Positions 10,185 to 53,961 are shown, numbered from the stretch's first letter. The stretch: DNA of 64,000 nucleotides from an uncultured Eubacteriales bacterium (GCA_902797685.1 CADBTQ010000007.1:7290-71289); one strand, 5' to 3'. The notes: generated by a model not told the origin, from the sequence alone. A program made the numbers and translations.

Positions 10185-11042
10185 ATGATACTGTTAGACG
10201 GCAAACAAACGGCAAAAGCCGTAAGAGAGAAGATCAAAATCTGCGCCCAAGAGGCGATGGCTAAGTGGGGCGACCCCATTACGTTGGCGGTGATACTGGT
10301 CGGGGAAGACCCCGCCAGTCAAGTGTACGTGGGCAACAAGATCAAAGGTTGCGCCCAAGTGGGATTCGAGTCCCGCAAGGTGGTGCTGCCCGAGACGGCG
10401 AGCCAAGAGGAAGTCGCCGCGTCTATCCGCGCCCTCAACGCCGACCCCTCGGTACACGGGGTGCTGTTGCAGCTGCCTCTGCCCAAGCATCTCGACGAGC
10501 AGGCGTTGCTCGCCTTGATCGACCCCGACAAGGACGTGGACGGACTGCATATCGTACAGCGGGGCAGACTGTTTTGCGGCTTGCCTTCTCTACTCCCTTG
10601 CACCCCCTTTGGGATCATGAAACTGTTGGAGACCTACGGGATCGATCCCGCGGGCAAGCGCGCGGTCGTGATCGGGCGCAGTAATTTGGTGGGCAAACCC
10701 TTGGCGATGATGCTCCTCAACGCCAACGCCACCGTGACCGTGTGCCACAGCCGCACCCTCGATCTACCCTCGGTGACCAAAGAGGCGGATATCCTCGTCG
10801 CGGCGGTGGGCAAACCCAACTTTGTGACGGCGGACATGGTCAAAGAAGGGGCGATCGTCATCGACGTGGGCATCAACCGCGTGGACGGCAAATTGGTGGG
10901 AGACGTCGATTACGACGAGGTCGCCCCCAAGTGTTCGTATATCACTCCCGTGCCGGGCGGCGTGGGACCCATGACCGTGACCATGTTGCTCGCCAACACC
11001 CTGAAGGCGTACGAAAACGTACACGCGATTGCCGCGCAATGA
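10185..11042 (+). CDS. folD: Bifunctional methylene-THF dehydrogenase / methenyl-THF cyclohydrolase
   Basis: 285 aa: [17 protein letters not shown]...[14 protein letters not shown]...[13 protein letters not shown]. Adjacent to fhs. Confidence 0.92.
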
Positions 11043-11292
11043 TATAGGCAAAGCCTATGATATACCCTTGGGGATATGATATAGACCTTCGGTCAATGAT
11101 ATACGGCTACGCCGCATGATATACGACCTACGGCCGTATTGCGGATAAAATCGAATAGATGGACTATTTGTCAAATCAAATAGACACCAAAATATCCCTC
11201 GAGGACTCGTCCCCGAGGGATATATCATATTCGAGCGCCGCTCGAATATATCATACCGCTTTGCGGTATATCATAGGCGCAGCCTATCTCAT
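11039..11292. repeat. Modular hairpin-array element, copy A1 (ATGATATA left arm / conserved core / TATATCAT right arm)
   Basis: ATGATATA occurs at 11039, 11057, 11076, 11096 and 11116, each followed by a different 3-5 bp GC stem with a 3-nt loop. The core contains TATTGCGGATAAA...TTTGTCAAATC...AATATCCCTCG. TATATCAT occurs at 11221, 11247 and 11267 (degenerate at 11285), separated by longer hairpins. Homologous copies lie at 48175-48447 and 52959-53250. Confidence 0.85.
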
Positions 11293-11305
11293 TGTGTCGA
11301 AGGCA

Positions 11306-34208: not shown

Positions 34209-35888
34209 ATGGACTACAAGAGAGAGATCGCCAAACTATTTGCCCCTCACCTCACCGAGGAGGAGGCGTACAGCCTGCTCGTGCCCCCCAAGGATATCGC
34301 CATGGGGGATATTTGCTTGCCCTGTTTTCGCTTGGCAAAGACCATGCGTATGTCTCCCGTCGCTATCGCCGACAAGTTGGCGGCGGAATTGACCTTGCCC
34401 CCCTTCGTCGCCGAAGTCAAATCGGTAGCGGGCTACCTCAATTTCAAGTTCAGTTCGCACGACTTCGCCTCCACCGTGTTGGGCAACGTGTTGTCCCAAG
34501 GGGCGGTTTACGGCAAGTCGGACTTGGGCGCAGGCAAGACCGTGTGCATCGATTATAGCTCCATCAATATCGCCAAACCCTTCCATATCGGGCATTTGTC
34601 CACCACCGTGTTGGGCGCGGCGCTCTACCGGCTGTATAAGGAGTTGGGCTACAACGTCGTGGGCATCAATCACCTGGGGGATTGGGGCACCCAATTCGGC
34701 AAGTTGATAGTCGCCTATCACAAGTGGTCGTCCAAAGAGGAGATCGAGCGTGGCGGCGTGCGCAAGTTGGTGGAGATCTACGTCAAGTTCCACCAAGAGG
34801 CGGAAGACCATCCCGAGTTGGACGAGGAAGCGCGCTCTTGGTTCAAAAAGTTGGAAGACGGGGACGAGGAAGCGGTGTCTTTGTGGAAGTGGTTCAAGGA
34901 GATCACCCTCGCGGACGACGTGCCCATTTACGACCGCTTGGGGGTGCATTTCGACTCTTACGCGGGCGAAAGCTTTTACAACGACAAGATGGACGCCGTG
35001 GTGGACGAGTTGGCTGCCAAGGGGTTGCTGACCCTCTCGGACGGGGCGCAGATCGTGGAACTGGACGGCATGCCCCCCTGCATCATCCGCAAGTCGGACG
35101 GGGCGACTCTGTACGCCACCCGCGATTTGGCGGCGGCGTTTTACCGCAAGTCCACCTACGACTTCGCCAAGTGTCTGTACGTGGTGGCGTATCAACAAAA
35201 CCTCCACTTCAAGCAATGGTTCGAGGTGGTACACAAGATGGGCTACGAGTGGTACAAGGACTTGGAGCACGTGGCGTTCGGTATGGTGAGTTTGGAGGAC
35301 GGCGCCATGAGCACCCGCAAGGGCAACGCCGTGTGGCTGACGGACGTACTGGATAAGGCGGTGGAGAAAGCCGCCGAGATCATCAAGCAAAAGTCCCCCG
35401 ACCTCGACGATCCCAACGAAGTCGCCGAGATGGTGGGCGTGGGTAGCGTCATCTTTTCGGCACTCATCAACAACCGTATCAAGGACATCGAGTTCCGCTA
35501 CGACAAGATCCTCAATTTCGACGGGGAGACCTGCCCCTACGTGCAATACACCCACGCCCGCTGTGCGTCTTTGCTCGCCAAAGCGGGGGAGTGGCAAGCG
35601 CCCCGAGATTACGGCGCCCTCTCGGACGACGTCGCCAAGGACATCCTGCGCAATTTGGAGAGGTACCCCTCTCTGCTCAGGGAAGCCGCCGACAAAAACG
35701 AGCCGAGCATGATCACCCGCCACGTGGTGGATCTGTGCAAGTTGTACAACAAGTTCTACTTTGACAACAAGATCCTCACCGCTCCCGACGGCGTGCGCGA
35801 AGCCCGCTTGGCGTTGACTTTAGCGGTCAAGACGGTGATGGAAAACGGCATGGCGATCATCGGCATCCGCTTGCCGGACAAGATGTAG
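34209..35888 (+). CDS. argS: Arginine--tRNA ligase
   Basis: 559 aa: ..SSINIAKPFHIGHLSTTVLG.. (HIGH) and ..MSTRKG.. (KMSK-like). Confidence 0.93.
   Translation: MDYKREIAKLFAPHLTEEEAYSLLVPPKDIAMGDICLPCFRLAKTMRMSPVAIADKLAAELTLPPFVAEVKSVAGYLNFKFSSHDFASTVLGNVLSQGAVYGKSDLGAGKTVCIDYSSINIAKPFHIGHLSTTVLGAALYRLYKELGYNVVGINHLGDWGTQFGKLIVAYHKWSSKEEIERGGVRKLVEIYVKFHQEAEDHPELDEEARSWFKKLEDGDEEAVSLWKWFKEITLADDVPIYDRLGVHFDSYAGESFYNDKMDAVVDELAAKGLLTLSDGAQIVELDGMPPCIIRKSDGATLYATRDLAAAFYRKSTYDFAKCLYVVAYQQNLHFKQWFEVVHKMGYEWYKDLEHVAFGMVSLEDGAMSTRKGNAVWLTDVLDKAVEKAAEIIKQKSPDLDDPNEVAEMVGVGSVIFSALINNRIKDIEFRYDKILNFDGETCPYVQYTHARCASLLAKAGEWQAPRDYGALSDDVAKDILRNLERYPSLLREAADKNEPSMITRHVVDLCKLYNKFYFDNKILTAPDGVREARLALTLAVKTVMENGMAIIGIRLPDKM
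35829..35888 (+). repeat. Left copy of a perfect 60-bp direct repeat (last 60 nt of argS including the stop)
   Basis: AAGACGGTGATGGAAAACGGCATGGCGATCATCGGCATCCGCTTGCCGGACAAGATGTAG is identical to 37444-37503. Confidence 0.95.
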
Positions 35889-35985
35889 AATTCATAGCTA
35901 TTCGTCTTGGTGTGGGTCATATTATAGATATATTGTGCTATAATATGCAGTCATGGGCGTGGTTTTCACCGACATATTATTATCA

Positions 35986-36032
35986 ATAGAGAGCAACGCG
36001 GGCAGTTTTAATCTGCCCGCGTTGCTCTCTAT
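35986..36032. terminator. Perfect 20-bp-stem hairpin between argS and the convergent XRE gene
   Basis: ATAGAGAGCAACGCGGGCAG-ttttaat-CTGCCCGCGTTGCTCTCTAT. The right arm contains the XRE stop codon. Confidence 0.65.
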
Positions 36033-36250
36033 TTGATATTTATGGTTAAACCCAAAAAGTAATCTGCCGAAATGCCATACACCAATGACATTCTTCGTAG
36101 AATATCATATCCAGGTTTTGCTTTCCCATGCAGCCATTCGCTTACTTGGCTTTGCTTTACGCCTATCGTCTGTGCGAACGCGCTTTGAGATAGATTTTTT
36201 TCAATTAAAAAATCTTCTAGTATTTCACTAAACGTAACCTCTGTCTCCAT
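36029..36250 (-). CDS. XRE-family helix-turn-helix regulator (73 aa)
   Basis: ..LSQSAFAQTIGVKQSQVSEWLHGKAKPGYDILRRMSLVYGISADYFLG.. is a classic HTH_3-type sequence. Confidence 0.85.
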   Translation of the reverse strand: METEVTFSEILEDFLIEKNLSQSAFAQTIGVKQSQVSEWLHGKAKPGYDILRRMSLVYGISADYFLGLTINIK

Positions 36251-36261
36251 ATGGTCATTAT

Positions 36262-36313
36262 ATAGAATATTCTATTAGCGCGTCTTGACATATAGAATAT
36301 TCTATTATATAAT
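36262..36313. promoter_or_regulatory. Two copies of the 14-bp perfect palindrome ATAGAATATTCTAT; the second fills the spacer of a consensus TTGACA-N17-TATAAT promoter
   Basis: Palindromes at 36262-36275 and 36292-36305. TTGACA at 36285-36290 and TATAAT at 36308-36313, facing the + strand gene at 36341. Confidence 0.7.
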
Positions 36314-36340
36314 TTTAGCAACGAGTGACTGAGGTGGACT

Positions 36341-37435
36341 ATGGACGAAAATGATCAAGTTGAACTAAGAACGCAAGATGCAAATTCTTTTTTTTCTTCG
36401 TTACCTTTATATCATAGATCAAAGATTCTTAACCAGTATGTAGAGGAGGACAAGGAATATAGAAAAAAGTTGAGTGTAGGAATGCTTTCTCTCCTTCTCG
36501 CCGGCGGGGTAATTCTTGGGGGCGTATCAATTATTACATGGTGTTTTGACGAGGTTATAGGTTTCTCGATATTTATTGCTTTTTTGGTATTTGAGCTTGT
36601 TATGACCATAATTATTGGATTGGTCTGGCATAATGCAATTAAAAAAGGAGTCATGAGCAAAAGGAAACGTTCTTTAATGACGGAATCGGAGTTATGTGCC
36701 GATTATCTTGATAATCATCATCATGAAGTGATAATTCTTCAAAAGCGATATGCCGATATGATGGAAAACCATTTCTCCCCATCAAGTGTTTATTTGTTGC
36801 CAAACAAATATGAATTATATCTTGATAATGTAGCAAAGAGGTTTTGTCTCTTCCAATCATACAATGCAAAGTATTACGACTATAAGGACATAATAGGATA
36901 TGAGGTTTATCAAAACGAACAAGAAATGTCTTACCAAAGTGGGAATAGCGGGAAAGCCCTTCTGGGTGGTCTTGTTCTTGGTGTACCGGGCGCTATTGCA
37001 GGTGCCGCTGGATCTAGGCATATTAAACTTGAAAAAACGATAACCAATTTATCTTTGATTATTAAAGTTAATGATCCCTTAGAACCTATTATTCGGATTG
37101 TCTATCTTAATTCAAATCAACCATCACCCCCTGTTGTTGAAGGAACAGAACGACATAGTTCACTGCAACATAGCATACAAGAAATTTGCGCAGTGATTGA
37201 AATAATGAAATCACAAGCAAATAAGCCTCATACGAACCCAAATACAAAATCACCTATACCCGATGCCACCAATAATACTACAGTAGTCGCAAGGTTGCCA
37301 AGACAGCACATTATTAATAATGAAACTGATATAAAATCACGATTAACGGAATTGAAAGACTGGCACGATGAAGGACTAATTTCCGACGATGACTACGAAG
37401 AACTAAAAAAACAAGCACTATCTAAGTTGCGGTAA
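36341..37435 (+). CDS. Membrane protein with two TM helices, a glycine-zipper segment and a C-terminal SHOCT domain (364 aa)
   Basis: TM helices LSVGMLSLLLAGGVILGGVSIITW and FSIFIAFLVFELVMTIIIGLVW. Glycine zipper GKALLGGLVLGVPGAIAGAAGS. C-terminus RLTELKDWHDEGLISDDDYEELKKQALSKL (SHOCT pattern). Confidence 0.75.
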   Translation: MDENDQVELRTQDANSFFSSLPLYHRSKILNQYVEEDKEYRKKLSVGMLSLLLAGGVILGGVSIITWCFDEVIGFSIFIAFLVFELVMTIIIGLVWHNAIKKGVMSKRKRSLMTESELCADYLDNHHHEVIILQKRYADMMENHFSPSSVYLLPNKYELYLDNVAKRFCLFQSYNAKYYDYKDIIGYEVYQNEQEMSYQSGNSGKALLGGLVLGVPGAIAGAAGSRHIKLEKTITNLSLIIKVNDPLEPIIRIVYLNSNQPSPPVVEGTERHSSLQHSIQEICAVIEIMKSQANKPHTNPNTKSPIPDATNNTTVVARLPRQHIINNETDIKSRLTELKDWHDEGLISDDDYEELKKQALSKLR

Positions 37436-37443
37436 TATTAGAT

Positions 37444-37503
37444 AAGACGGTGATGGAAAACGGCATGGCGATCATCGGCATCCGCTTGCCGGACAAGATG
37501 TAG
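37444..37503 (+). repeat. Right copy of the 60-bp direct repeat (orphan argS 3' fragment)
   Basis: Identical to 35829-35888. Confidence 0.95.
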
Positions 37504-39855: not shown

Positions 39856-40012
39856 CTTTCCGCGCCCGGCTTTTTGATATTTTTTGAAAAAAATCCCTTT
39901 TGGGCGGGACAAAACGCCTTGCAAAATCGTCTATCTTTATGAGAGGTGGACTCTCCGTGTTTTGTAACGAATAGCACCGCTGTTGCATTTCCCGCAAACC
40001 TTGCGGAATTAC

Positions 40013-40112
40013 GCCATTGACGGCGCACGTTCCATTGGGTACAATAGAGTAGGATACTATGAACGCAAGCACTTATACCATACCCCCATATAGCGACGAG
40101 TACCTTGCCCAA
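40013..40112 (+). repeat. Promoter+leader repeat R1 (100 bp; 3 mismatches to 41393-41492)
   Basis: Aligned by eye with an offset of exactly 1380 bp. Mismatches at 40031, 40091 and 40094. Confidence 0.9.
40017..40045 (+). promoter_or_regulatory. Near-consensus promoter TTGACG-N17-TACAAT inside R1
   Basis: Hexamers read directly. An ATG lies 13 nt after the -10. Confidence 0.55.
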
Positions 40113-40163
40113 TTTGATTGGATAGAAGCACTTAATCGGCTTTTCTTCGCAGGAAAAATGTAA
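40059..40163 (+). CDS. Possible 34-aa leader peptide, variant 1 (MNASTYTIPPYSDEYLAQ-FDWIEALNRLFFAGKM)
   Basis: Hand-translated. It shares its first 18 codons with 41439..41612. No SD sequence and an almost leaderless position; coding status is uncertain. Confidence 0.25.
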   Translation: MNASTYTIPPYSDEYLAQFDWIEALNRLFFAGKM

Positions 40164-41339: not shown

Positions 41340-41392
41340 TCCAACTGTATATTGATTATACCGCTATTATCCTTTGTAGTTTGCAGGATACT

Positions 41393-41517
41393 GCCATTGA
41401 CGGCGCACGTCCCATTGGGTACAATAGAGTAGGATACTATGAACGCAAGCACTTATACCATACCCCCATACAGTGACGAGTACCTTGCCCAAGTGGCAAG
41501 GGTGGTTGGGGTGGCGC
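41393..41517 (+). repeat. Promoter+leader repeat R2 (left 100 bp = R1; right 59 bp = R3)
   Basis: 41393-41492 matches R1. 41459-41517 matches 44105-44163 with 4 mismatches. Confidence 0.9.
41397..41425 (+). promoter_or_regulatory. Second copy of the TTGACG-N17-TACAAT promoter
   Basis: Same hexamers as in R1. Confidence 0.55.
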
Positions 41518-41612
41518 TATTGTTGCTGTTGCATATGTACCTCAAGCGTGTCCCGTGGTCACATCAGTTGCCTTTTTTGTTGACATATATGAAAAACTAC
41601 GTAAATTGCTAG
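41439..41612 (+). CDS. Possible 57-aa leader peptide, variant 2 (MNASTYTIPPYSDEYLAQ-VARVVGVALLLLLHMYLKRVPWSHQLPFLLTYMKNYVNC)
   Basis: Hand-translated. Hydrophobic middle segment. Below the ORF-track size cut-off. Confidence 0.25.
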   Translation: MNASTYTIPPYSDEYLAQVARVVGVALLLLLHMYLKRVPWSHQLPFLLTYMKNYVNC

Positions 41613-44072: not shown

Positions 44073-44231
44073 ATGTCAGTAGATCAAAATAAAAAATGCA
44101 TAGTCATACCCCCATACAGCGACGAGTACCTTGCCCAAGTGGCAAGGGTTGTTGGTGTGGCACTCCTCGCCCGCGGCGTTTACGACGCTTGGGGCAACCA
44201 TAAGGTGCTCAATCCCGACGGAAGAGTTTGA
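44073..44231 (+). CDS. Possible 52-aa small protein, variant 3 (MSVDQNKKCIV-IPPYSDEYLAQVARVVGVALLARGVYDAWGNHKVLNPDGRV)
   Basis: Hand-translated. It shares IPPYSDEYLAQ with variants 1 and 2, and VARVVGVALL with variant 2. A terminator follows it. Confidence 0.3.
   Translation: MSVDQNKKCIVIPPYSDEYLAQVARVVGVALLARGVYDAWGNHKVLNPDGRV
44105..44163 (+). repeat. Repeat R3 (lacks the promoter part)
   Basis: 59 bp matching 41459-41517 with 4 mismatches. Confidence 0.85.
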
Positions 44232-44318: not shown

Positions 44319-45758
44319 CTATTCTTTTTGGAGACCCGCCGCCAATCTCACGCACTCGTAAGCGCCGTCGTAGTAGCCGGTGGCTTTGAGTTCGTCGATG
44401 CGGTCGCACATATGGGCGAGGATCTCTTTGTCCGACAAAAGACGGTCGAACATTTCGTTGATGGACTCGGCGGTGGGGCACTCGAAGGTGCTGTCGCCTT
44501 TTTCTCTACCGTTGATGGCGCCGTACACCTCGTGTCCGCCGATATGGCGCATAAAAACTTTGGGGATGGGGTAGTACGCCAACTCGCTGGGCTTGGTGAC
44601 CAACAGATCGGACACTGGCATAAAGAGGTTGGTGGAGTACACGGCTTGGAAAATGTCGTTGTTGCAGAAGGCGTAGATACCGGTGACGTCCTTGGTGCGG
44701 ATGTCTTTGGCAAACGCTTTGAGCTTGTCGTACTCGTTGAAGAAGTTGTGGGTCTCGATGCCGCCCAACGCCTTGTTGAGCTTGTGATAGATGCCCTCGT
44801 GATCGCCGAAGTTGATAAACAAGGCGACCTTGCCCTCGTTGACGTAGGGCAACAGGTGCTTGATCATGGCGACGTACATATCGAAGCCCGCGCCCGCGCC
44901 GCCGACCGTCATGAGGATGCGCACGGGCTTGCCGGTGGCAAAGCGCTCTTTGCGCAGACGGTTGTCCTCTTCCAGGTTGACCAACAATTCGTGATCCACA
45001 AAGCAACCCACCATCTTGAGATCCTTTTCGGGGATGCCTTTGAGGGGCTTTTTGTCAAATCCGTTGAGCATCTTGTAGCCCAAGTAAGCATAGGGGGTTT
45101 GCACGGTGTGGATGGCGCCTTCCGACAGGTGCAGACCCATGGGCCAGTTGTCGGGGATGGCGTTGACCACGTGGGTCATGCCCGCATGGATAGCGCCTTG
45201 CGAAGGCCACACGTGGGTGGCGATGTAGGGGATATCCTTGGGGATGTTGCGGAAGATAGGCGCAAGCAGTTCGGAATTGGCTTGATCTTTGGCGTTGTAG
45301 CTGATCTTTTTGAAGCCCTCGCAGTTGAGGGGCTCCCACACCAATTTGTTGAACAGTTTGGACTTTTGGCTGATGCGGCTGGCGAGCGAATACATATCGT
45401 TTTGCTCGCGGATCATCTTGGAGCCGGTAGCGTCGAAGGACGCCAAGTCCAACCAATAGGGGTTGAATCCCAACGCCTTGGCGGCGGACGCCATGGCGAT
45501 GGAGATACGATAGTGACCAAATCCCATACGGATGTTGCCCACGATCAAGGCTTTGGGGTCAAACTCGTGGTTTTGCTTGTCAAACACGATGTTGTTGGCG
45601 CCGATGAAGTCTAAGGTGTCAATGGGCTTGAAACCGATCTTGTAGTCGGCTTTGGAGTCGTCTCCGTACTTCTTGACGTATTTTTGTTGGGACTTTTGGG
45701 CGGCTTTGACCGTCTTTTTGTCCATGGGGTTGCCAAAAATGACGCTGGATTTGTCCAT
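44319..45758 (-). CDS. Putative GT-B fold glycosyltransferase (MurG/MGDG-synthase-like), 479 aa
   Basis: ..GKPVRILMTVGGAGAGFDMY.. resembles the glycine-rich nucleotide-sugar loop of GT28-type enzymes. It is in an operon with a GPH sugar transporter. The family call is tentative. Confidence 0.45.
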   Translation of the reverse strand: MDKSSVIFGNPMDKKTVKAAQKSQQKYVKKYGDDSKADYKIGFKPIDTLDFIGANNIVFDKQNHEFDPKALIVGNIRMGFGHYRISIAMASAAKALGFNPYWLDLASFDATGSKMIREQNDMYSLASRISQKSKLFNKLVWEPLNCEGFKKISYNAKDQANSELLAPIFRNIPKDIPYIATHVWPSQGAIHAGMTHVVNAIPDNWPMGLHLSEGAIHTVQTPYAYLGYKMLNGFDKKPLKGIPEKDLKMVGCFVDHELLVNLEEDNRLRKERFATGKPVRILMTVGGAGAGFDMYVAMIKHLLPYVNEGKVALFINFGDHEGIYHKLNKALGGIETHNFFNEYDKLKAFAKDIRTKDVTGIYAFCNNDIFQAVYSTNLFMPVSDLLVTKPSELAYYPIPKVFMRHIGGHEVYGAINGREKGDSTFECPTAESINEMFDRLLSDKEILAHMCDRIDELKATGYYDGAYECVRLAAGLQKE

Positions 45759-45760
45759 GA

Positions 45761-47383
45761 TTATTCCTCCTCTCTCGACGTCGCTTCGCTTTGCTCGAGA
45801 TGACTATGGTTTTCTTGCTCGGATTCCTCTCTCGACTCCGCTTCGCTCTGCTCGGCGGGTTGCTCGTTGGTCTCGACAGCCTCTTCGGTGGGTTCGTCGT
45901 CTTTGTCTTTTTCGTTCTCGACGGCAGCCAAGAACGCGGCGTCCGACTCTTTGGCGATGATCTTCATGATCTTCTTTTCACGATACATGAGAAGGATCGC
46001 GCCGCCCGCCAAGCAGAAGCCGATGGCGACCAACGCCACGATCAACAGACCGTTGGTGGAGGGGACGATATCGTTGCTGGTCTTGTCTTGGGTGGTACCG
46101 ATGATGGCGAGAGAGGTAAACGCCAACATAGCGATGGATTGACCCAGTTTCATGGAGAAGGTACGAGCCGCAAAGAACATACCCTCGCGGTTTTCGCCGG
46201 TGGTGATACTTTCGGCTTCGGCGACGTCAGCCACGATGGATTGCGGGATGATACCCAACAAAGCCATAGGCAAAGCGGCGATCACGCAGATAGCAAAGCC
46301 CATCACGTAAGCGACGGGAGTGCCGCCGTCCACGGTACGATCGATGAAGTTGAGGTTGGTGAGTGCGGCGATGAGGTAAGCGACCGCCAAGCCGACGAAG
46401 CCGGCGATGACGAGTTTTTTCTTACCGAACTTTTTGACCAACTTGGTCACGAAGGGATACAACGCGGCGGAGAGTACGGTCATTACGCCCATCAGGATCA
46501 TGACGTACAACTCGGGCAGGTGCATACTCACTTTGACGAAGAAGGGGAGACCCGTTTGGAACAGGGTCAGACCGATCCAGTACATGATGTCCGAGCCGAC
46601 GAAAACGCGGAAGTCCTTGTTTTTGAAGGTGGACGCCAAGGATTTGAACATATTGGATTTGCTGGGCTCCGCGTCCACGAACTCCTTTTCTTTGAGCAGG
46701 AAGGTGGGCAACAACATCATCACCAAGGCGATGACAGCCAGCACGATAAAGATCACGCGATAGCTCCAAGCGAAGCTCAAGCCGGCGCCGCGCAGCACGC
46801 CGCCGAACAGGAAGGGCAGGTAGGCGAGCAGAGTACCCACGAAGAAGGTGAGGGAGATGGCGGTGGAGATCGCCATGCGGTCCTCTTGCGTCTTACCGAA
46901 CTCGGAGATCAAGGCGTTGTAGGGGGTGCAGTACATCGTCATAAACAGGTAGAACAGGATGATGAACACGGACACCCAAGCCACGTTGCCGCCCGAGGTG
47001 TGGTCGATAGGCGCGCAGAACAGCAACACGGTCACGACCGCAAAGGGCACGGCGGCGTATTGCATAAAGGGGATGCGACGGCCTCTCTTGTTGCGGCTAC
47101 GGTCGGACAGCGAAGCGATAAGGGGATCGGTCACGGCGTCAAACAGACGGGAGATCGCGGTGATAAGACCCAAGATGGTAAGGAATCCGCCGATCACCAA
47201 ACCGGGAGCGATGTACTTGATGGCGCCCGCTTTGACGTCGTCCGCGGTGGGAAGATAGAAGGTGACCAACCAAGTGTTGATGATGCCGCCCAGAATGGAC
47301 CAGCCCAGTTGTCCCAAAGCGAAGATCCAGATCTGCTTTTTGGACAGTCGTTTGCCAATCGGCTTTTCTTGTACGTTTTCCAT
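45761..47383 (-). CDS. MFS transporter, glycoside-pentoside-hexuronide (GPH):cation symporter-like, with an acidic repeat tail
   Basis: ..LSKKQIWIFALGQLGWSILGGIINTWLVTFYLP.. is a typical GPH/MelB N-terminus, with about 12 TM helices. The C-terminal tail carries two EQSEAxSREE repeats. Confidence 0.75.
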   Translation of the reverse strand: MENVQEKPIGKRLSKKQIWIFALGQLGWSILGGIINTWLVTFYLPTADDVKAGAIKYIAPGLVIGGFLTILGLITAISRLFDAVTDPLIASLSDRSRNKRGRRIPFMQYAAVPFAVVTVLLFCAPIDHTSGGNVAWVSVFIILFYLFMTMYCTPYNALISEFGKTQEDRMAISTAISLTFFVGTLLAYLPFLFGGVLRGAGLSFAWSYRVIFIVLAVIALVMMLLPTFLLKEKEFVDAEPSKSNMFKSLASTFKNKDFRVFVGSDIMYWIGLTLFQTGLPFFVKVSMHLPELYVMILMGVMTVLSAALYPFVTKLVKKFGKKKLVIAGFVGLAVAYLIAALTNLNFIDRTVDGGTPVAYVMGFAICVIAALPMALLGIIPQSIVADVAEAESITTGENREGMFFAARTFSMKLGQSIAMLAFTSLAIIGTTQDKTSNDIVPSTNGLLIVALVAIGFCLAGGAILLMYREKKIMKIIAKESDAAFLAAVENEKDKDDEPTEEAVETNEQPAEQSEAESREESEQENHSHLEQSEATSREEE

Positions 47384-47447
47384 GACTGTGTCGTTGAACG
47401 GCAGTCGTCTAATCTACCGCTCTTTCTCCTTATCTTTTTTGCTTGCG

Positions 47448-48050
47448 TTAGACGCGCAAGTTGTTGAGCCTGTACACGAATACGTCGATCAAAGCCTGCA
47501 CCTCTTGCTCGCCGCGTGAGTCTTGGTTGAGTACCACTCGGTTGAGGGTCAGCTTTTTGCAAAGCCCCATGAGGGCGTGTGTGGTAGCGAGATAAAACAG
47601 TTTGACGTCCTCGATCTCCTTGACCGTGCCGTCTTCCCGTCCCAAGCGGTAGGCGGCGAGATAGTCCTCGAAGTAGGGGAGAAGGGTATTTTCGTACTCG
47701 TCCAAACCCGCATTGGGGATGACGGTGGCGTCAAACTCGGAGATAAAGCGGAAGTAGTCGGGGCGCTCTCTGTAAACGGTAAGGAAGTCCCCGTAAAAAG
47801 CGCGCAATTTGTCCAAACCCGCTTTCGGTGCGCTGAGATCGAAAAAGTGATCCCTAACGTCTGCCGCCATGCGGGTGGCGACCGCCACGACCAAGTTTTG
47901 CTTGTTGGCAAAGTAGCGATACAACGTAGCCTCGCCCACGCCCACTTTGACGGCGACGTCTTTGATCGTAACGCTCGAGATACCCTTGTCCAAAAACAGT
48001 TGGGCAGAGGTCTCCACGATATAGTCGATCTTAGCTTGTTGTACGCTCAT
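47448..48050 (-). CDS. TetR-family transcriptional regulator
   Basis: MSVQQAKIDYIVETSAQLFLDKGISSVTIKDVAVKVGVGEATLYRYFANKQNL (TetR HTH). An alternative TTG start lies at 48062. Confidence 0.85.
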   Translation of the reverse strand: MSVQQAKIDYIVETSAQLFLDKGISSVTIKDVAVKVGVGEATLYRYFANKQNLVVAVATRMAADVRDHFFDLSAPKAGLDKLRAFYGDFLTVYRERPDYFRFISEFDATVIPNAGLDEYENTLLPYFEDYLAAYRLGREDGTVKEIEDVKLFYLATTHALMGLCKKLTLNRVVLNQDSRGEQEVQALIDVFVYRLNNLRV

Positions 48051-48063
48051 TTTCCCTCGCAAG

Positions 48064-48131
48064 TGATAGTCAATCTATCAAAATGATAACCTATCTATCA
48101 AAATTATATCTTATATAATCAACCCTGTCAA
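48064..48131 (-). promoter_or_regulatory. Consensus promoter (TTGACA-N17-TATAAT on the minus strand) followed by two palindromic operator-like sites
   Basis: -35 = reverse complement of 48126-48131; -10 = reverse complement of 48103-48108. Inverted repeats TGATAGtcaatCTATCA (48064-48080) and TGATAacctatcTATCA (48084-48100) lie between the -10 and the start codon. Confidence 0.6.
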
Positions 48132-48174
48132 TACCCATTTTTGCAAAAGTTGCGAAAAAACGCATTTTTTTGCG

Positions 48175-48447
48175 ATGAGATAGACCCTCGGTCAATGATA
48201 TATCGGCAAGCCGATATATGATATACGCCTTAGTCGTATTGCGGATAAAGCTATCAGACGTGTCATTTGTCAAATCGATCAAACACCACAATATCCCTCG
48301 GAGGCTTTGCCCTCGAGGGATATATCCTGTTCGAGCGCGGCTCGAATATATCATACCGCAGTGCGGTATATCATAGGCAAAGCCTATCTTATTGCCTTTG
48401 GCTTGCCAACGGCAGTGCGGTATATCGTATCACACGTGATCTATCAT
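48175..48447. repeat. Modular hairpin-array element, copy A2
   Basis: Same core (TATTGCGGATAAA..TTTGTCAAATC..AATATCCCTCG) and right-arm hairpins as A1 and A3. The left arm has 3 hairpin modules. Confidence 0.85.
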
Positions 48448-48546
48448 CTCCCCGCGGCTTCGGAACGTTTTTTTCTCTGTGAACGATAAGGGGAACACGG
48501 GTGGATTATTCCTTTTTTGGTTTATATTTTTTTTCTCAAAAAAGGG

Positions 48547-48575
48547 TTGCTTTTTTTACTTGCTCGCCGTATAAT
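48547..48575 (+). promoter_or_regulatory. Putative promoter TTGCTT-N17-TATAAT for the lipoprotein/surface-protein module
   Basis: Hexamers read directly, about 90 nt upstream of the ATG at 48667. Confidence 0.45.
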
Positions 48576-48666
48576 GTTGAGGCTGTCCCCGATTTCGGAC
48601 GAAAAAAAGCAATGTGTGCGACAAAAAAGTCGTGTTTTTTGCTTTGTAAAATATATGGAGGAAAAT

Positions 48667-49218
48667 ATGACAAAAATCAACAAAATAACGATTATTCTCT
48701 TGCTGCTTGTTTTTTGCGCGCTCTGTTCCTTTGGGCTTGTCGGATGCAGGAGCAAAGCACCTAGCGACCAGAGTTATTGGTATGGGACGTACAAGTATGA
48801 CGCGTCCTTAACTCGTGTTATTATTGAAATAGAAGGTGATGACTCTTCCAAGACAGGGATGTTAAGCACTTTGCGCCAAGACGGAATAGATATAATCGCT
48901 TACGATGGTCTTCGTAATTATGATTTCGAGTGGGGCACGGATAATTACAGCCTATTACAGTGGGAAATAGAGAATATACAGCACGACATCATCGTAAATA
49001 AAAAAGGATTTCATATGGGGCACGGGATCATGCAATGGGCTGAGCGGGAGTTTATTTCCGAGTTATCCAAGGATCCCGCAAGCATACGAAGCGTAAGTTG
49101 CCTTGGTCTTGGTTCGTTCGACCAGTTGGCGGTTCGATATAGTGTCGTATTGCCGATCACTTTGCCTAAGGGCAATATGACGATTAAGTTTTTCGTGGAC
49201 TACATAAAAGCAAAATAG
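48667..49218 (+). CDS. Lipoprotein of unknown function (183 aa)
   Basis: MTKINKITIILLLLVFCALCSFGLVGCRS lipobox. The ATG at 48667 lies 5 nt after GGAGG. The ORF-track start at 48517 is upstream of the promoter. Confidence 0.7.
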   Translation: MTKINKITIILLLLVFCALCSFGLVGCRSKAPSDQSYWYGTYKYDASLTRVIIEIEGDDSSKTGMLSTLRQDGIDIIAYDGLRNYDFEWGTDNYSLLQWEIENIQHDIIVNKKGFHMGHGIMQWAEREFISELSKDPASIRSVSCLGLGSFDQLAVRYSVVLPITLPKGNMTIKFFVDYIKAK

Positions 49219-49247
49219 CAGCGTCCACGGTGATAAGAGGTAGAAAA

Positions 49248-52200
49248 ATGACAATTAAGCATAAAATGAGTGGTATCATAACTGTTTTATCTATACTGAT
49301 TACGGTGTTGGTAATTTCCTCTGCGGGAAGTGAAGCGACCGCTTCCGCTGACGACATCTTTACTCCTGATGATGAATTTGTTTATTGTGTTACAAAGGAC
49401 GGCGTAGGCTTATGGAATTATATTGAAGAATATAATGAATGTGAAATTGCGGTATCGGAATTAATTACGCATTATAATATCAATATTGGTCAAACATTCG
49501 GTAACGGTGTTATTATACAAAACATGTCTACTGCACACAGTTTAGTATGTTCGCAGGATGATAACATAGTTAAGTTTGTACCTAAGACTGCTTTCATCAA
49601 CGTTGGCACGGTAATGCATATCGGTGAGGACTATGGGTTTGTCATCAAAACCACTGTGGATACAGATCCTGATAATTCGAGTAGGCACTATAATCGTAGT
49701 ACTGTCATTATTATAAAGAACGAAAGCCATTGGCAAGGTGATATGTTTTGTATAAAACTAACTGTTTGCGCTACTATTGATTACTTCTGTTTTGATCAAA
49801 GTGGCGTCGTTGCTCTTTTGCAGGAAGTAGATGATGGTAGCAATATAGGGCGTATTACCTCAACGAAATGGAACTTGATCAAGAGTGCGGGCGTAGACGG
49901 TTGGGTTGTGGTGCCGGCTATACGTTTATATAACGTAGACACTTATGGACATCCCATTGTTACAGTTGCAAAATCCAATAACCTGACGTTAAGTAATCTT
50001 TCGATTGGGTCACGTATCTATAATTTGCAGAGTTATAATACATGGGATTCGGAATATGACCCCAACACGGACGACGGATATTATTTGATCGGTGCGCAAT
50101 ATTTTTATCAAGTAACACAAAAACATGGTGAGTGGAATACCCAAAGCAGCGTTGTAGGGATGGTTAAAGAGTTTGGGAAGATTGCTTTGGGTGCACTTGT
50201 TGATACGGTCGCTGATTATTTGAATTTGTCCTCTCTGAATACGTTTTATGAAGCAAGTGAAGGTTTGCTTGCGCTGACCGGACAAATACAAACGGTCCAA
50301 GATGTACACTTGACAAACAATGAAAACGGTTTGGTGTATCCCGATTTCGCTTATGCAGGGGTTAATACTCGAACCAATCAAATCGCTCAATTCGGGCGGT
50401 TAGTAAAAGATAGCAGTATGCTCTTTGACCAAACAGCCGGAATATTATGCTATGGTAAGGACGAGTACATAGAGGCAAGGTTTAATTATTCTCATACGGA
50501 TGGCAAAGCTGAGCCCACAAGGTTGGATTTGTCAGTGGGTGGATTGGTAATCGACAACCGAGAGGGTGGCGGTAATGACGCAGTAGTTAACGAGGCACAA
50601 CTATTTACTTATAAGAATTGCGGGGCGAGCATTGCGCCTTCTCTTTCTCTTAATCTATGCCAAAGTAGAATCTATTACGCAATTTATGATAGTGCAATAC
50701 CTTCCTATGTCTTTACCCCCACGTATAATGGTACCTATGCGTTGCAGTTGGACGGAAATGTCGGCACGGTGGAGATAGACGGGCAAGTGGCGTCGGGTAA
50801 CAACGGCTGTTACCTTTTCGAGGGCATTGCCAACACGCCTGTCAACATAGTATTGCGTCCATCGGGTGACACTATCATCAAAGGCACGTTGTCGATAGAC
50901 GTCCATCAAGGCGCGCAGGCTTTTCCGTCCAACCAGACGAGAATTACCAAGATCGACATTCCTACGGACGGCATCTATGCGGCGTGCAATAACTCTTTGC
51001 AAGTAAATGCGTTACTCAAAAGCGACTTTTCGGAGTATCGAGCGGGAGGGGTCGGTTGGTCGGACACGGCGAATATGATCCCGCTGCCCGCCGGCACCTA
51101 TTATTTGCTCGTCGACAACGATACAGACCATAGTATAGAGGCAGGAACTTTCTTAGAGAAGGTAACGTCCAACAACTTGGTGTCGTCTGTGGCGAAGTCG
51201 GTATCATTGACCGACAAGTATTCATTTTACCGCGCGTCGGCGGAGCGAGACAAAGGATATTGTATCGCCCCCCAAAACGAATCGTTATCTCCCGTGTACT
51301 ATACTTTTGTTGATTCAACGTTTTGTAGTTTTTCGCCTATGGCGGTAGGCGGCAACTATGCTCGCATTAGTTCACAACCTATCGATACTTATTATTACGT
51401 GGGTGTGAGGCTGTATGAAGGCATAGCAGACGCGCAACTATTGTGGAAGCAAGACGCGGGCAGCGGTGCGTGGCTCGTCGACGGGGCGTCTGTCGGCACG
51501 CATTGTTCGTTGGAGCGCAATCGTTCTTATACAATCTCGTATTTTCATAATGGGCAATATACCGTGTCGGACATTGATTTGGACGGGAGCTCGTCGCCTA
51601 ATTTCAATTTGGTAAACAACACGTTTACCATATTGCCTACGGCGGATTTGGGGCAGACCTTCGTGCTGCGGGCGCAAGCCGGTCTCGGCGCACATTACGA
51701 TTGTCAACTGACCATTACGACAGTACGAGAGAACAAGATATCGCTATCCGCAACAAACACGGCGACCGCTTGTGCCGTCAATTGGACGGCGCTGTTGCCG
51801 GGGATTACCGAATTTGACGTTGAATTATACGGGGATTCAACCGGCACGCACGCCGTTAGGACCGTAACGACCGACGGGGCGATGAGCGGCACCGTCAACT
51901 TGCTCTCAATGACCGGTACTCACTATACGCGTGCCGTGGTACGCAGAGTCGTGTTTGAGGGGAGATCAAACGTAGGCGATAGCTATGAGACTGCGATTGA
52001 CAACTGGTTCGGCGGCGGATCGGGCGTGGAGAATGCACCGTATTTGATTAAAAATATACGGCACTTTAATAACATTTACCATGCCAACGCCGCTTATTAC
52101 AAACAAACGGTGCATTTGAATTTCGGCGGTACGGCACCGCGGGCGGGCGTAACCTTCAACGGCAATTACAATGGCAACAATAAACGGATATCCGGTATCG

Positions 52201-52901
52201 TTCGCACCGTCACTATGACGGCTAGCAGCCCGACGTCAGGCAGTTTCGGCGGGTTGTTTGATATTTGCGGTGGCACTATTCGGGGCATTTCGTCGTACGT
52301 CGCGACAGTAAGTGTTACTGTTTATAACGTGCTATCCGCTTATCATATCGGCGGCGTTGTCGGCACTATGACGGAGGGTAGTTCCATTGCGGGATTAATG
52401 TTTGCCACTACGGTGTCGAGCAACACGCATAGCGCATATGGCACTATCGGCGGTGTGGCGGGATTGTCCGGTGGCGTGGTATCTGCGTTAGCATTCGGCT
52501 CCATCAATTTGAGCGGTTGCGGCAATATGGGCGGCATCGTTGGGCACAATTGTGCGAGCGGTCGAGTGAGCGGCGGGTTGGTAGACACCCAAGTTAATTT
52601 TCGTGTATATTCCGGATTCAGTCCCAATATCGGCGGCGCGGTAGGGCTCAACGAAGGATACGTTCATACGTCATTGGAAGCGAATATTACGGTAGTAGGG
52701 AGCATGGACTCCATTTTGTTGAGGAAATGCACCCCTCGGGTGGGAATACTGGTTGGATATAATCACTTGGGCACGGTGACCCACGGCGAGTTGGACGATA
52801 CGTGTTCGATAGACGTTTCGTCGCTGACCGGCGCAACCTTGACGTATGCGACGGGCGCGGCGATCGGACGAGACGAACCAGCGCCCGAGCAAAACGGATA
52901 A
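49248..52901 (+). CDS. Large secreted/surface protein (1217 aa) with PPC-like beta domains and C-terminal GLUG-like glycine-rich repeats
   Basis: Signal peptide MTIKHKMSGIITVLSILITVLVISSAGSEATASA. ..LPAGTYYLLVDNDTD.. is PPC-like. Repeated GGVVG/GGVAG/GGIVGHN/GGAVGLN units near the C-terminus are GLUG-like. No LPXTG motif was seen. Confidence 0.7.
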   Translation: MTIKHKMSGIITVLSILITVLVISSAGSEATASADDIFTPDDEFVYCVTKDGVGLWNYIEEYNECEIAVSELITHYNINIGQTFGNGVIIQNMSTAHSLVCSQDDNIVKFVPKTAFINVGTVMHIGEDYGFVIKTTVDTDPDNSSRHYNRSTVIIIKNESHWQGDMFCIKLTVCATIDYFCFDQSGVVALLQEVDDGSNIGRITSTKWNLIKSAGVDGWVVVPAIRLYNVDTYGHPIVTVAKSNNLTLSNLSIGSRIYNLQSYNTWDSEYDPNTDDGYYLIGAQYFYQVTQKHGEWNTQSSVVGMVKEFGKIALGALVDTVADYLNLSSLNTFYEASEGLLALTGQIQTVQDVHLTNNENGLVYPDFAYAGVNTRTNQIAQFGRLVKDSSMLFDQTAGILCYGKDEYIEARFNYSHTDGKAEPTRLDLSVGGLVIDNREGGGNDAVVNEAQLFTYKNCGASIAPSLSLNLCQSRIYYAIYDSAIPSYVFTPTYNGTYALQLDGNVGTVEIDGQVASGNNGCYLFEGIANTPVNIVLRPSGDTIIKGTLSIDVHQGAQAFPSNQTRITKIDIPTDGIYAACNNSLQVNALLKSDFSEYRAGGVGWSDTANMIPLPAGTYYLLVDNDTDHSIEAGTFLEKVTSNNLVSSVAKSVSLTDKYSFYRASAERDKGYCIAPQNESLSPVYYTFVDSTFCSFSPMAVGGNYARISSQPIDTYYYVGVRLYEGIADAQLLWKQDAGSGAWLVDGASVGTHCSLERNRSYTISYFHNGQYTVSDIDLDGSSSPNFNLVNNTFTILPTADLGQTFVLRAQAGLGAHYDCQLTITTVRENKISLSATNTATACAVNWTALLPGITEFDVELYGDSTGTHAVRTVTTDGAMSGTVNLLSMTGTHYTRAVVRRVVFEGRSNVGDSYETAIDNWFGGGSGVENAPYLIKNIRHFNNIYHANAAYYKQTVHLNFGGTAPRAGVTFNGNYNGNNKRISGIVRTVTMTASSPTSGSFGGLFDICGGTIRGISSYVATVSVTVYNVLSAYHIGGVVGTMTEGSSIAGLMFATTVSSNTHSAYGTIGGVAGLSGGVVSALAFGSINLSGCGNMGGIVGHNCASGRVSGGLVDTQVNFRVYSGFSPNIGGAVGLNEGYVHTSLEANITVVGSMDSILLRKCTPRVGILVGYNHLGTVTHGELDDTCSIDVSSLTGATLTYATGAAIGRDEPAPEQNG

Positions 52902-52958
52902 GCTTGCGTCGAATCGGTACACAGCCGCCAACACACCTGCGGCAGTGATTGCTTCACA

Positions 52959-53250
52959 ATGATATAGCCTATGGCTATGATATATCCCTTTGGGATATGA
53001 TATAGACCTTCGGTCAATGATATACGACCTATGGTCGTATTGCGGATAAAACTATTAGATAGGTGATTTATCAAATCAATCAAACCACACAATATCCCTC
53101 GGAGGCTTTGCCCTCGAGGGATATATCCTATTCGAGCCCTGCTCGAATATATCATACCGCTTAGCGGTATATCATAGGCACTGCCTATCTCATTGCCTTT
53201 GGCAAGCCATAGGCAGTGCGGTATATCATATCCCGTGGGGGATATATCAT
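52959..53250. repeat. Modular hairpin-array element, copy A3
   Basis: ATGATATA modules with ATAGCC-tat-GGCTAT, CCC-ttt-GGG, GACC-ttc-GGTC and CGACC-tat-GGTCG. The core and right arm are nearly identical to A2. Confidence 0.85.
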
Positions 53251-53424
53251 TTGCAATTCACCCGCTTTCGGTTGCCTGAAAACGGGTGAATTGTATTTAC
53301 CGCTCGGGCGTATCAAAATCGGGCGCAAAGGGGCGTTTTGCCCGCCGTTTTGGGAAAAATCGGGGATTTTTACCCCAAAATGCGATTATTAACAAAACTT
53401 AATCAAAATCAAAGCAACAAGTAT

Positions 53425-53453
53425 TTGACGGCAAAACCCTTTATATATATACT
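53425..53453 (+). promoter_or_regulatory. Putative S10-operon promoter TTGACG-N17-TATACT
   Basis: Hexamers read directly. A structured leader of about 195 nt follows before rpsJ. Confidence 0.5.
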
Positions 53454-53652
53454 TAAGCGTGCTCGGGCGGGGATAAGTCTCTTAACGGATGATGTATGAG
53501 GTTACCCGCACCTTAGGGATAGTTCATACGGACTAGTTCGATACAATCGGGCGCTAACTCAGGGCAAACTTCGGTTTGCCTATAAAAATGAGAGGCGTGA
53601 AACGCACGAGCGAGAAAACAAATTTGCGAGTTAGAAAACAGGAGGCAAAATT

Positions 53653-53961
53653 ATGGCAAACCAAACTTTGAGAATCAAATTGAAAGCGTACGATCACGAC
53701 TTGGTGGACGCAGTCGCCGCCAAAATCGTTGACGTTGTGTCCCAAAACGGCGCTAAGATCAGCGGTCCTATCCCCCTTCCCACCGAGAAAGAGGTCGTGA
53801 CCATCTTGCGTTGCCCTCACAAATATAAGGACAGCCGCGAGCAATTCGAAATGCGCACCCACAAACGTCTGATCGACATCTTCAATCCCAACCAAAAGGT
53901 CGTCACCGCTTTGATGAGCATCGACGTGCCCGCCGGCGTGGATATCAAGATCAAGATCTGA
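53653..53961 (+). CDS. rpsJ: 30S ribosomal protein S10
   Basis: [19 protein letters not shown]... Confidence 0.97.

Follow-up and report, generated by a model that had tools for sequence, protein, structure and literature searches.

The minimal mobile elements, or genomic islets, of Neisseria (PMC1538595, PMC3082526) occupy a fixed site between conserved genes, at which different strains carry alternative cassettes or none; they bring no mobility genes of their own and are exchanged by homologous recombination in their flanks. A second described system that is relevant here is Gut-1 (RF01706), a motif of three mini-hairpins with a conserved UGA(A/U)AU spacer, located behind stop codons or terminators and in the space between convergent genes, which Rfam and Weinberg et al. 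2010 treat as a stand-alone small RNA (sRNA) candidate from the "human gut only" (PMC2864571). The locus considered in this report has likenesses to both. It lies in a stretch of 64,000 nt from an uncultured Eubacteriales bacterium (GCA_902797685.1 CADBTQ010000007.1:7290-71289), which we refer to as the window and whose coordinates are used throughout. Between a gene for a tetR-family regulator and rpsJ, the first gene of the S10 ribosomal protein operon, the window carries a small lipoprotein gene (lipo1) and a very long gene for a secreted protein (the giant gene), bracketed by two copies, A2 and A3, of a dispersed palindromic repeat that we call the A-element and whose arms resemble Gut-1. 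As judged from the sequences of several strains, the segment 48453-53288 is a strain-variable accessory islet of surface-protein genes, bounded by the A-elements, which is probably gained, lost and swapped through recombination by the host itself. It appears to be an ordinary swappable gene islet and no mobile element of a new kind, and by analogy its closest counterparts would be the Neisseria minimal mobile elements and islets bounded by repetitive extragenic palindromic (REP) or Correia repeats.

Three allelic states, i.e., empty, occupied and differently occupied, are documented at tetR/rpsJ in metagenome contigs of the same species. A 98%-identical homolog of the TetR protein was found on three source contigs from three samples (ENA ERZ27252065, JGI 3300026549 and Logan SRR7971122), and these contigs carry the empty allele, in which a major facilitator superfamily (MFS) gene and tetR are followed by one A2-type element and then by rpsJ, with the starts of tetR and rpsJ 752 bp apart as compared to 5602 bp in the window. 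The order of tetR, single A-element and rpsJ, to which a preliminary description of the window had pointed as informative if it existed in relatives, is thus present in three independent samples, which marks the module between A2 and A3 as accessory and strain-variable. BLAST alignment of the empty-allele contigs (L044, L045 and L046) to the window covers 44713-48375 (98.7% identity), 48409-48452 and the sequence from 53289 onward (99.7%); homology ends at 48452 and resumes at 53289, and about 41 nt are peculiar to the empty allele. The third state, allele L054, is on a 113.8-kb contig (ERZ27292096) that was found by an exact look-up of the S10 protein and has the order tetR, A2', lipo1, lipo2 (182 aa), lipo3 (200 aa), A3' and rpsJ. 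L054 corresponds to the window as far as 49254 and then from 52951 onward, and the stretch between (49255-52950), which in the window holds the giant gene, is replaced by two paralogs of the lipoprotein gene, giving three lipoprotein genes in tandem with no A-element between them. The left breakpoint of this replacement falls inside a 25-nt leader that is repeated before each gene and the right one falls just short of A3. Two short contigs, L066 and L068, reproduce the window allele exactly, and the samples ERZ28613628 and ERZ28614005 are of the window type. Divergence in the flanks is patchy, with intervals of 100% identity lying beside intervals of 93-96%, and such mosaic flanks are as expected for recombination. 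The locus therefore offers a sequence-resolved case, in uncultured Clostridia, of the gain, loss and replacement of surface-protein genes within a species directly upstream of the S10 operon.

Beyond these alleles, relatives at 66% TetR identity do not have tetR adjoining rpsJ, a TetR search of the genome contigs collection yielded nothing closer than distant TetR proteins of unrelated phyla, and exact look-ups of the TetR translation and of the giant protein gave no record. Contig L058 shares with the window only the rpsJ leader, identical from 53478 on (L058:1-477), and has a wholly different gene, terminator and promoter upstream of it, and contigs L055 and L057 break at window position 53468. 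To judge by their sequences, these three contigs reveal a second breakpoint just downstream of the -10 box of the S10 promoter. The three alleles, the L058 context and the contigs ending at 53468 together make the stretch upstream of the S10 promoter an apparent hot spot of rearrangement in the population. Contig ends could also be read as a sign that the module was misjoined between tetR and rpsJ during assembly, by way of the repeated A-elements, as the short contigs L059 and L068 end in or near such elements and L055 and L057 end as just described. We find this explanation barely credible, since the left junction is identical in the independent contig L066 (100% over 47927-49687), both junctions recur in L054 from another sample, and the longest exact run common to A2 and A3 (42 nt) is well under the k=141 that the contig names suggest.

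The preliminary description had reported A2 and A3 as direct repeats in the same orientation, and the positions 48233-48431 and 53034-53232 do align directly over 199 nt with a spacing of 4801. The two copies are less alike than the "near-identical" of that description, their identity being 88% and their left arms differing in both the number and the sequence of their units; the longest exact run between them is 48287-48328 = 53088-53129, and the runs in descending order are 42, 20, 17, 17 and 16 nt long. A third copy, A1, with the same orientation, fills the intergenic region between the convergent genes folD and pmbA, the folD stop codon lying inside its first unit. Each A-element is about 270-300 bp long and begins with a left array of ~20-nt units, in which (A)TGATATA is followed by a perfect mini-palindrome of 10-14 nt with a 3-nt centre. 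An AT-rich middle (GCGGATAAA...TCAAATC...) and a longer hairpin (ATATCCCTCG...CGAGGGATAT) come next, and the right array consists of the same units inverted (TATATCA). The window contains 30 copies of the heptamer TGATATA, as compared to an expected 3.0 +/- 1.8, and they cluster in A1, A2 and A3. The unit stems average 5.1 bp, as compared to 2.47 +/- 0.16 in 1000 shuffles, and the elements as a whole fold with z = -11.9 (A3), -4.6 (A2) and -7.6 (A1, folded as DNA). Being odd-length perfect palindromes with 3-nt loops, the unit stems are equally suited to DNA and RNA. Both ends of the A-element carry CAATGA(T/G)ATAG, and in A3 the arms 52957-53004 and 53148-53195 are terminal inverted repeats of 48 nt with 77% complementarity.

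Arms of this kind could suggest that the two A-elements are the ends of a unit mobilised in trans, either as a composite transposon or as a pair of miniature inverted-repeat transposable elements, and the inverted arrays of the A-element do look like the multi-site ends of transposons of the Tn7 or Mu type. This explanation is nevertheless highly improbable. The empty site keeps one element where it should keep none, the same A2 and A3 bracket other cargo in L054, and no target-site duplication is found at A1, at A3 or around the whole unit; the flanks of A1 (..GCCGCG / TGTCGA..) and of A3 (..GCTTCA / TGCAAT..) have no direct repeat, with ends that are uncertain by a few nt. Nor was any transposase, integrase or recombinase domain detected by Pfam among the open reading frames (ORFs) of the window, and the region had no BLAST match among plasmids or phages. 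Of the "composite or captured module" that had been proposed earlier, the word "captured" can be kept in a loose sense and the composite transposon falls away, in view of the missing transposase, the missing target duplication and the element retained at the empty site. No empty site for an A-element by itself was seen, A1 being present in 5/5 conspecific contigs (one of them with a strongly diverged allele). Scans of viral and metagenome sequences with a pattern for the A-core (GTATTGCGGATAAA..TATCCCTCG) returned only the JGI contig that was already known and one chance phage-like match, the pattern being too strict.

Variation among the elements themselves is considerable. Across strains, A2 alleles are only 82-86% identical where the adjoining genes are 96-100% identical, which means that the 88% identity of A2 and A3 amounts to ordinary allelic divergence and is no sign of a duplication that has just taken place. 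In its left arm A3 departs from A2 and resembles A1, and an A1 allele from another strain has the identical first hairpin. When alleles of A1 (11036-11294 and L063:917-1167) and of A2 (the window copy and L054:6953-7235) are aligned, the flanks are 97-100% identical and it is the elements that differ. Whole hairpin units have been swapped between strains (AGGCAAAGCCT to AGCCTATGGCT) with pairing preserved, the number of units varies, and a deletion of ~25 nt that removes the element centre recurs at both the A1 and the A2 loci. Such differences suggest slippage, gene conversion among copies, or both.

The likeness to Gut-1 is seen on both strands of all three copies (3/3). On the + strand the left arm of A3, at 53.8 bits, passes the gathering score of the Rfam model (50 bits), and the A3 allele of L054 reaches the same 53.8 bits. 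The other matches are under the gathering score, i.e., 35.1 bits for the right arm of A3 on the - strand, 18.5 (+) and 29.2 (-) for A2, and 47.1 and 42.1 for A1. The relation holds in the other direction as well, in that the flanks of the Gut-1 seed sequences BAAZ01000095, BAAZ01025322 and BABA01021652 in the Rfam Stockholm file have the same bipartite layout, with hairpin and GUGAUAU units, a centre, and then AUAUCAC and hairpin units. The seeds are sited, like A1, between convergent genes, or after stop codons or terminators, and the file contains 75 forward as compared to 85 reverse-complement motifs. Gut-1 is thus a single arm of a larger palindromic repeat, which is built as a bipartite array from mini-hairpins, and the A-element belongs to a known, uncharacterised family; a search of the literature library available found no paper that describes Gut-1 in this way. 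The A-element differs from the published motif in its size of ~270-300 bp, its inverted second array, its AT-rich centre and its longer central hairpin, and its spacer in the window is UGAUAUA where that of Gut-1 is UGA(A/U)AU. Its host is a metagenome-assembled genome of the Clostridia, for which the sample names suggest a rumen origin, in contrast to the "human gut only" of the Gut-1 literature. An orphan Rfam family, now 15 years old, gains in this manner a genomic identity as a dispersed, bipartite and hypervariable palindromic repeat, with copies at the ends of genes and along the borders of variable islets. Matches to Gut-1 are then better annotated as a repeat element, and not necessarily as an sRNA gene, and the function of the family becomes testable, whether as an insulator or stabiliser of mRNA ends, as a recombination site, or as both. 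We infer that the A-elements probably act as hairpin barriers between transcription units.

Throughout the core and the right arm, the single element of the empty allele has the A2-type base wherever A2 and A3 differ (e.g., at GTTCGAGCGCGGCTCG and ACCGCAGTGCGG), and its right end together with the CTCCC that follows is A2-type too. To the right of the element, the empty allele has CTCCC and TTCGGCGCGTCTCGGCGCCGTTTG, a stretch of ~24 nt that is in none of the occupied alleles (flank sequence CTCCCTTCGGCGCG...), and at the same position the occupied alleles have TTGCAATTC..., the flank of A3. The junction is one at which ~24 nt are replaced by 9 nt, with no duplication. One proposal in the preliminary description, an insertion into a pre-existing A-element with duplication of that element, is not supported, given the A2-type bases of the empty-allele element and an A3 with 88% identity and an A1-like left arm. 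The polymorphism is recent, for which reason a duplication at insertion should have left near-identical copies, and A3 is therefore no duplicate of A2 made at that event.

We favour gain of the islet, or allelic exchange, as the more probable history. At its origin the islet would have entered by a homologous anchor on one side, in the leader of rpsJ, and an illegitimate join on the other, at the right end of A2. The left join would have used the 5-nt microhomology CTCCC, with the loss of ~24 nt of recipient DNA, and the right join would lie in the homologous rpsJ leader. Joining by this route, homology-facilitated illegitimate recombination, was reportedly described by de Vries and Wackernagel in 2002. 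A3 could then be the donor lineage's own element upstream of rpsJ. Once established, the islet would have spread by ordinary recombination in the flanks, and its gain, loss and refilling could proceed by double crossovers between strains, in the conserved flanks or in the A-elements. The elements would serve as boundary markers and as portable homology, and not as transposon ends.

Several observations weigh against this account. The CTCCC microhomology is only 5 nt long, the inferences rest on 4-5 metagenome lineages, no outgroup was found that keeps tetR adjacent to rpsJ and would polarise the change, and no donor lineage was found in which the module is followed by one A-element and then by rpsJ. 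The right arm of the empty-allele element is, moreover, short of a 54-nt piece, and an unequal crossover at the 17-nt CAGTGCGGTATATCAT of A2 and A3 would remove exactly those 54 nt. The latter point favours the opposite history, in which the occupied state is ancestral and unequal recombination between right-arm repeats of A2 and A3 lost the islet, possibly as a circle. Such a deletion has the exact direct-repeat runs listed above at its disposal, and recombination of the first CAGTGCGGTATATCAT of A2 with the second CAGTGCGGTATATCAT of A3 would delete the module and shorten the right arm in a single step. The terminal unit of the empty-allele element, GATATATCAT, is also closer to that of A3 in L054 than to that of A2. 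Loss by this route is still, in our estimation, unlikely, as the right flank of the empty allele (CTCCC and TTCGGCGCGTCTCGGCGCCGTTTG) is not the A3 flank, its CTCCC being common with the flank of A2, none of the alleles seen is a recombinant of the 42-nt run, although this is much longer, and deletion cannot create the ~24 nt that are peculiar to the empty allele. An origin of the empty allele from a crossover within the 42-nt core run was rejected on account of the A2-type bases and of the ~24 nt not in occupied alleles. The looping-out of the segment by recombination between A copies, which had been suggested at the outset, is accordingly possible in the physical sense, given the 42-nt run, and does not account for the empty alleles as products of a crossover in the core, nor for their extra ~24 nt.

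The location of the breakpoints is a further point on the opposing side. No more than 10 nt separate three of the four breakpoints of the variable region (3/4) from the nearest end of an element, their positions being the right end of A2, 9 nt after the right end of A3 and 6 nt before the left end of A3, and L054 contains, 34 nt before A3' and thus between cargo and element, a relic of an A right-terminal unit that matches that of the empty allele at 21/23 nt (local score 36, as compared to a shuffle maximum of 23). Both features hint at end-specific events and not at generic homologous recombination; the A-elements would then be recognition sites, similar to attC or REP sequences, for a recombinase or HUH enzyme that is encoded elsewhere, docks units of cargo and A-element onto the end of a resident copy and so builds cassette-like arrays. 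The stems of the element hairpins, which are conserved in structure and not in sequence, and the curated covariation of Gut-1 in Rfam would agree with such a role. We consider it improbable, in that Pfam finds no recombinase in the 64-kb window, the three tandem lipoprotein genes of L054 have no A-element between them, the junctions are imprecise (24 nt replaced by 9 nt), A1 is fixed in 5/5 strains without any cargo, and homologous modules elsewhere are without A-elements. An integron cassette was likewise rejected, with no integrase among the window ORFs and no A-element between the tandem genes of L054. Gain, loss or swapping by host recombination is the explanation that we retain as probable, and the features to which it refers are collected in Table 1.

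Table 1. Features of the tetR/rpsJ locus and of the additional A-element in the window
Feature	Coordinates	Strand	Remarks
A1, third A copy, same orientation	11036..11294	+	Gut-1 47.1 bits (+), 42.1 bits (-)
tetR-family regulator	47448..48050	-	left conserved flank; Pfam TetR_N E 2e-13; 98%-identical orthologue in empty-allele contigs
Promoter of tetR (TTGACA-17-TATAAT) with a pair of operator-like 20-nt repeats (TGATAG-N5-CTATCA)	48061..48131	-	
A2, resident A-element	48175..48452	+	orthologous to single element of empty allele; RNA fold z = -4.6
Segment absent from empty allele	48453..53288	+	leader, lipoprotein gene, giant gene, A3 and 37 nt; BLAST
Module leader	48453..48666	+	putative -10 TATAAT near 48572; leader common with allele L054
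Terminator-like hairpin and T-run in module leader	48616-48635	+	ahead of ribosome-binding site
lipo1, 183-aa lipoprotein ORF	48667..49218	+	lipobox LVGC; GC3 0.50
Giant gene, 1217 aa, signal peptide	49248..52901	+	all-beta multi-domain, predicted secreted; GLUG-like beta-helix C-terminus; allele-specific cargo
A3, second A-element, both arms complete	52957..53251	+	same position in both occupied alleles; fold z = -11.9
Strong 13+6-bp hairpin directly 3' of A3	53252..53295	+	3' half inside flank common with empty allele
S10-operon promoter TTGACG-17-TATACT, leader, rpsJ	53425..53961	+	right conserved flank

The ORFs agree with the earlier observation that a promoter or leader, a lipoprotein gene of 183 aa and a secreted-protein gene of 1217 aa are all that lies between A2 and A3. 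The TetR operon to the left and the ribosomal operon to the right are likewise as first described, with Pfam placing the MFS gene and DUF6937/6938 genes left of tetR, and S10, L3, L4, L23 and onward on the rpsJ side. For the lipoprotein, Pfam has no family. Counterparts of lipo1 exist as its tandem paralogs in L054 and as a small ORF upstream of the giant gene in other genomes; among the latter, it is in L065 alone that the lipoprotein signal was read directly. Pfam gives the giant protein no match at E<=1, and a word-indexed protein search with it recovered the protein itself and no close relative, the profile version of that search returning GLUG proteins only. An exhaustive HMMER search, by comparison, recovered 130 relatives, with E<1e-10 for 49, and the majority are 1170-1260 aa long and 23-31% identical. 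Its C-terminal ~260 residues (~900-1160) align through the family profile to the GLUG beta-helix 3n6z_A (E 0.002), and the Pfam Glug domain (PF07581) is found in 4/13 homologs (best E 2.7e-7), and not in the giant protein itself. An AlphaFold model (pLDDT 75.8, the predicted local distance difference test) is all-beta and multi-domain with tandem Ig-like domains, and the predicted fold resembles those of an Ig-like adhesin, HA70 and S-layer proteins. The giant protein appears to have in common with GLUG-repeat, IgA1-protease-type and Ig-like surface proteins a putative GLUG-like C-terminus and predicted all-beta Ig-like domains, and differs from them in having no Pfam match of its own and no recognised protease or cell-wall anchor domain.

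Homologs of the pair of small upstream ORF and giant gene (~30% identity) are found in two other Clostridia genomes, L065 and L069, next to housekeeping genes in each case. The L065 module, in which two small paralogs with a common lipoprotein signal sequence precede the giant homolog, lies before pgk-tpi-gpmI, and the L069 module lies before EamA and pyrimidine genes. From the sequences compared, the giant protein appears to represent an unannotated family of ~1200 aa, each member of which directly follows a small gene. No Gut-1 or A-element was found at the L065 and L069 module loci, and the module is thus independent of A-elements. The idea that relatives might carry the module without flanking repeats therefore holds for distant relatives alone (~30% identity, two genomes) and does not hold for conspecifics. 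In L069 (GCA_964368645.1), a promoter-like region of 85 nt is repeated directly on either side of the 205-aa upstream ORF and the 1188-aa protein (3832-3916 and 8564-8648; 79% identity, a 39-nt exact run and a spacing of 4732 nt). Bracketing by direct repeats of local sequence thus recurs there with a repeat that is unrelated to the A-element. The leader of the L069 module also has a terminator-like hairpin and T-run between promoter and ribosome-binding site (~4040-4075), as does that of the window module, and these leader hairpins may be attenuators or regulatory leaders.

The module had also been described as visibly less GC-rich than its flanks, and the GC and codon profile bears this out in part. 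The GC content at third codon positions (GC3) is atypical throughout, at 0.37-0.60 as compared to 0.67-0.83 for core genes (tetR, the MFS gene, DUF6937, folD, argS and ribosomal genes), with 0.50 for the lipoprotein gene; in the giant gene it climbs from 0.37 in the N-terminal third through 0.56 in the middle one to 0.60 in the C-terminal one. In bulk GC, the module is visibly AT-rich only over its first ~2 kb, with 0.39-0.41 at 48500-50500, 0.49-0.53 at 50500-53000 and about 0.55 in the flanks. Homologous modules in L065 and L069 are also low in GC, with an N- to C-terminal rise that is clear in L065 and weak in L069. Low GC is consequently a trait of the family and was rejected as a mark of recent foreign origin, the modules of two other genomes having the same property. 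Within the giant gene, GC3 jumps sharply near residue 500 from ~0.40 to ~0.60, and the bulk GC of the L065 homolog rises alike; the jump would be either a family feature or a recombination seam. Such an unannotated, fast-evolving and intrinsically low-GC module family may bear on strain-level variation of cell surfaces in gut communities.

Other parts of the window and of related contigs contain repeats of interest in their own right. A perfect 60-nt direct repeat of the argS 3' end (35829-35888 and 37444-37503) brackets a 1.6-kb insert (35889-37443; GC 0.37). This insert has a gene that by eye is of the Cro/CI (XRE)-like helix-turn-helix type (- strand, ~36040-36251) and a divergent promoter in which ATATAGAATATTCTATTA boxes are repeated. 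It also encodes a membrane protein of 364 aa with GC3 0.30 and no Pfam match, and there is no integrase in it; in L049, a relative at 66% TetR identity, argS adjoins uvrD with no gene called between them. A repeat family that we designate B (40001-40138, 41381-41518, 44105-44164 and L054:1995-2143) consists of a promoter, TTGACG-17-TACAAT, and a ~90-nt leader that ends in a CCTTGCC..GGCAAGG hairpin. B copies in the same orientation bracket two low-GC blocks of membrane-protein genes (GC3 0.45-0.58), the gene content of which differs between the window and L054. Next to A2, the operator repeats TGATAG-N5-CTATCA of tetR (twice, 48061-48100) resemble the A-unit consensus TGATATAG...CTATCTCA, and no tetR is located near A1; the likeness may be a coincidence, or may hint that the heptamer is the half-site of a DNA-binding protein. 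It is conceivable, and we think quite unlikely, that Gut-1-type hairpin arrays in general are recombinogenic docking elements and not sRNAs, with ends that are preferred breakpoints, at which units of cargo and element would be added, exchanged or lost. The breakpoints within 10 nt of element ends, the L054 relic terminus and the recurrence of low-GC cargo bracketed by direct repeats (at argS, between B repeats and in L069) may be taken as hints of this. If this were the case, gut and rumen Clostridia would possess a cassette system, integrase-independent or served by an unknown enzyme and adjacent to highly expressed operons, through which their surface proteins vary.

Among the known systems, REP sequences and the bacterial interspersed mosaic elements (BIME) that they form, together with the Correia repeat-enclosed elements (CREE; PMC2649163), are similar to the A-element in being small, dispersed and extragenic palindromic repeats of intergenic or 3' location, with inverted ends and many hairpins, and in being non-coding, strain-variable and tied to points of rearrangement. 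The A-element differs from them in that its arms are tandem units of ~20 nt in which only the heptamer is conserved and the sequence of the hairpin is specific to the unit. It also has no known partner of the REP-associated tyrosine transposase (RAYT) or other transposase type, no target duplication is seen, and its copy number is 3 in 64 kb (window only). Integron cassettes and their attC sites have the same geometry, i.e., structured, imperfectly palindromic sites in the same orientation and alternative cargo at one site, whereas the 64 kb of the window contain no integrase, the module has its own leader, and several genes lie between the sites; the A-element is much longer than attC and, on a reading of the junction sequences, has no core site of the GTTRRRY type. 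The concept of homology-facilitated illegitimate recombination (PMC3240628) fits the two junctions of the islet, one of which is in good homology (the rpsJ leader) and the other at the 5-nt CTCCC with ~24 nt lost, with the difference that here the process is deduced from the sequence only. The comparison with the Neisseria minimal mobile elements extends to the same flanking genes, alternative cargo or none and the lack of mobility genes, and the exchange by recombination in homologous flanks that is known for Neisseria is indicated here by the mosaic flanks only. What sets the islet of the window apart from the minimal mobile elements is the dispersed repeat that in addition brackets it, in two copies that have diverged.

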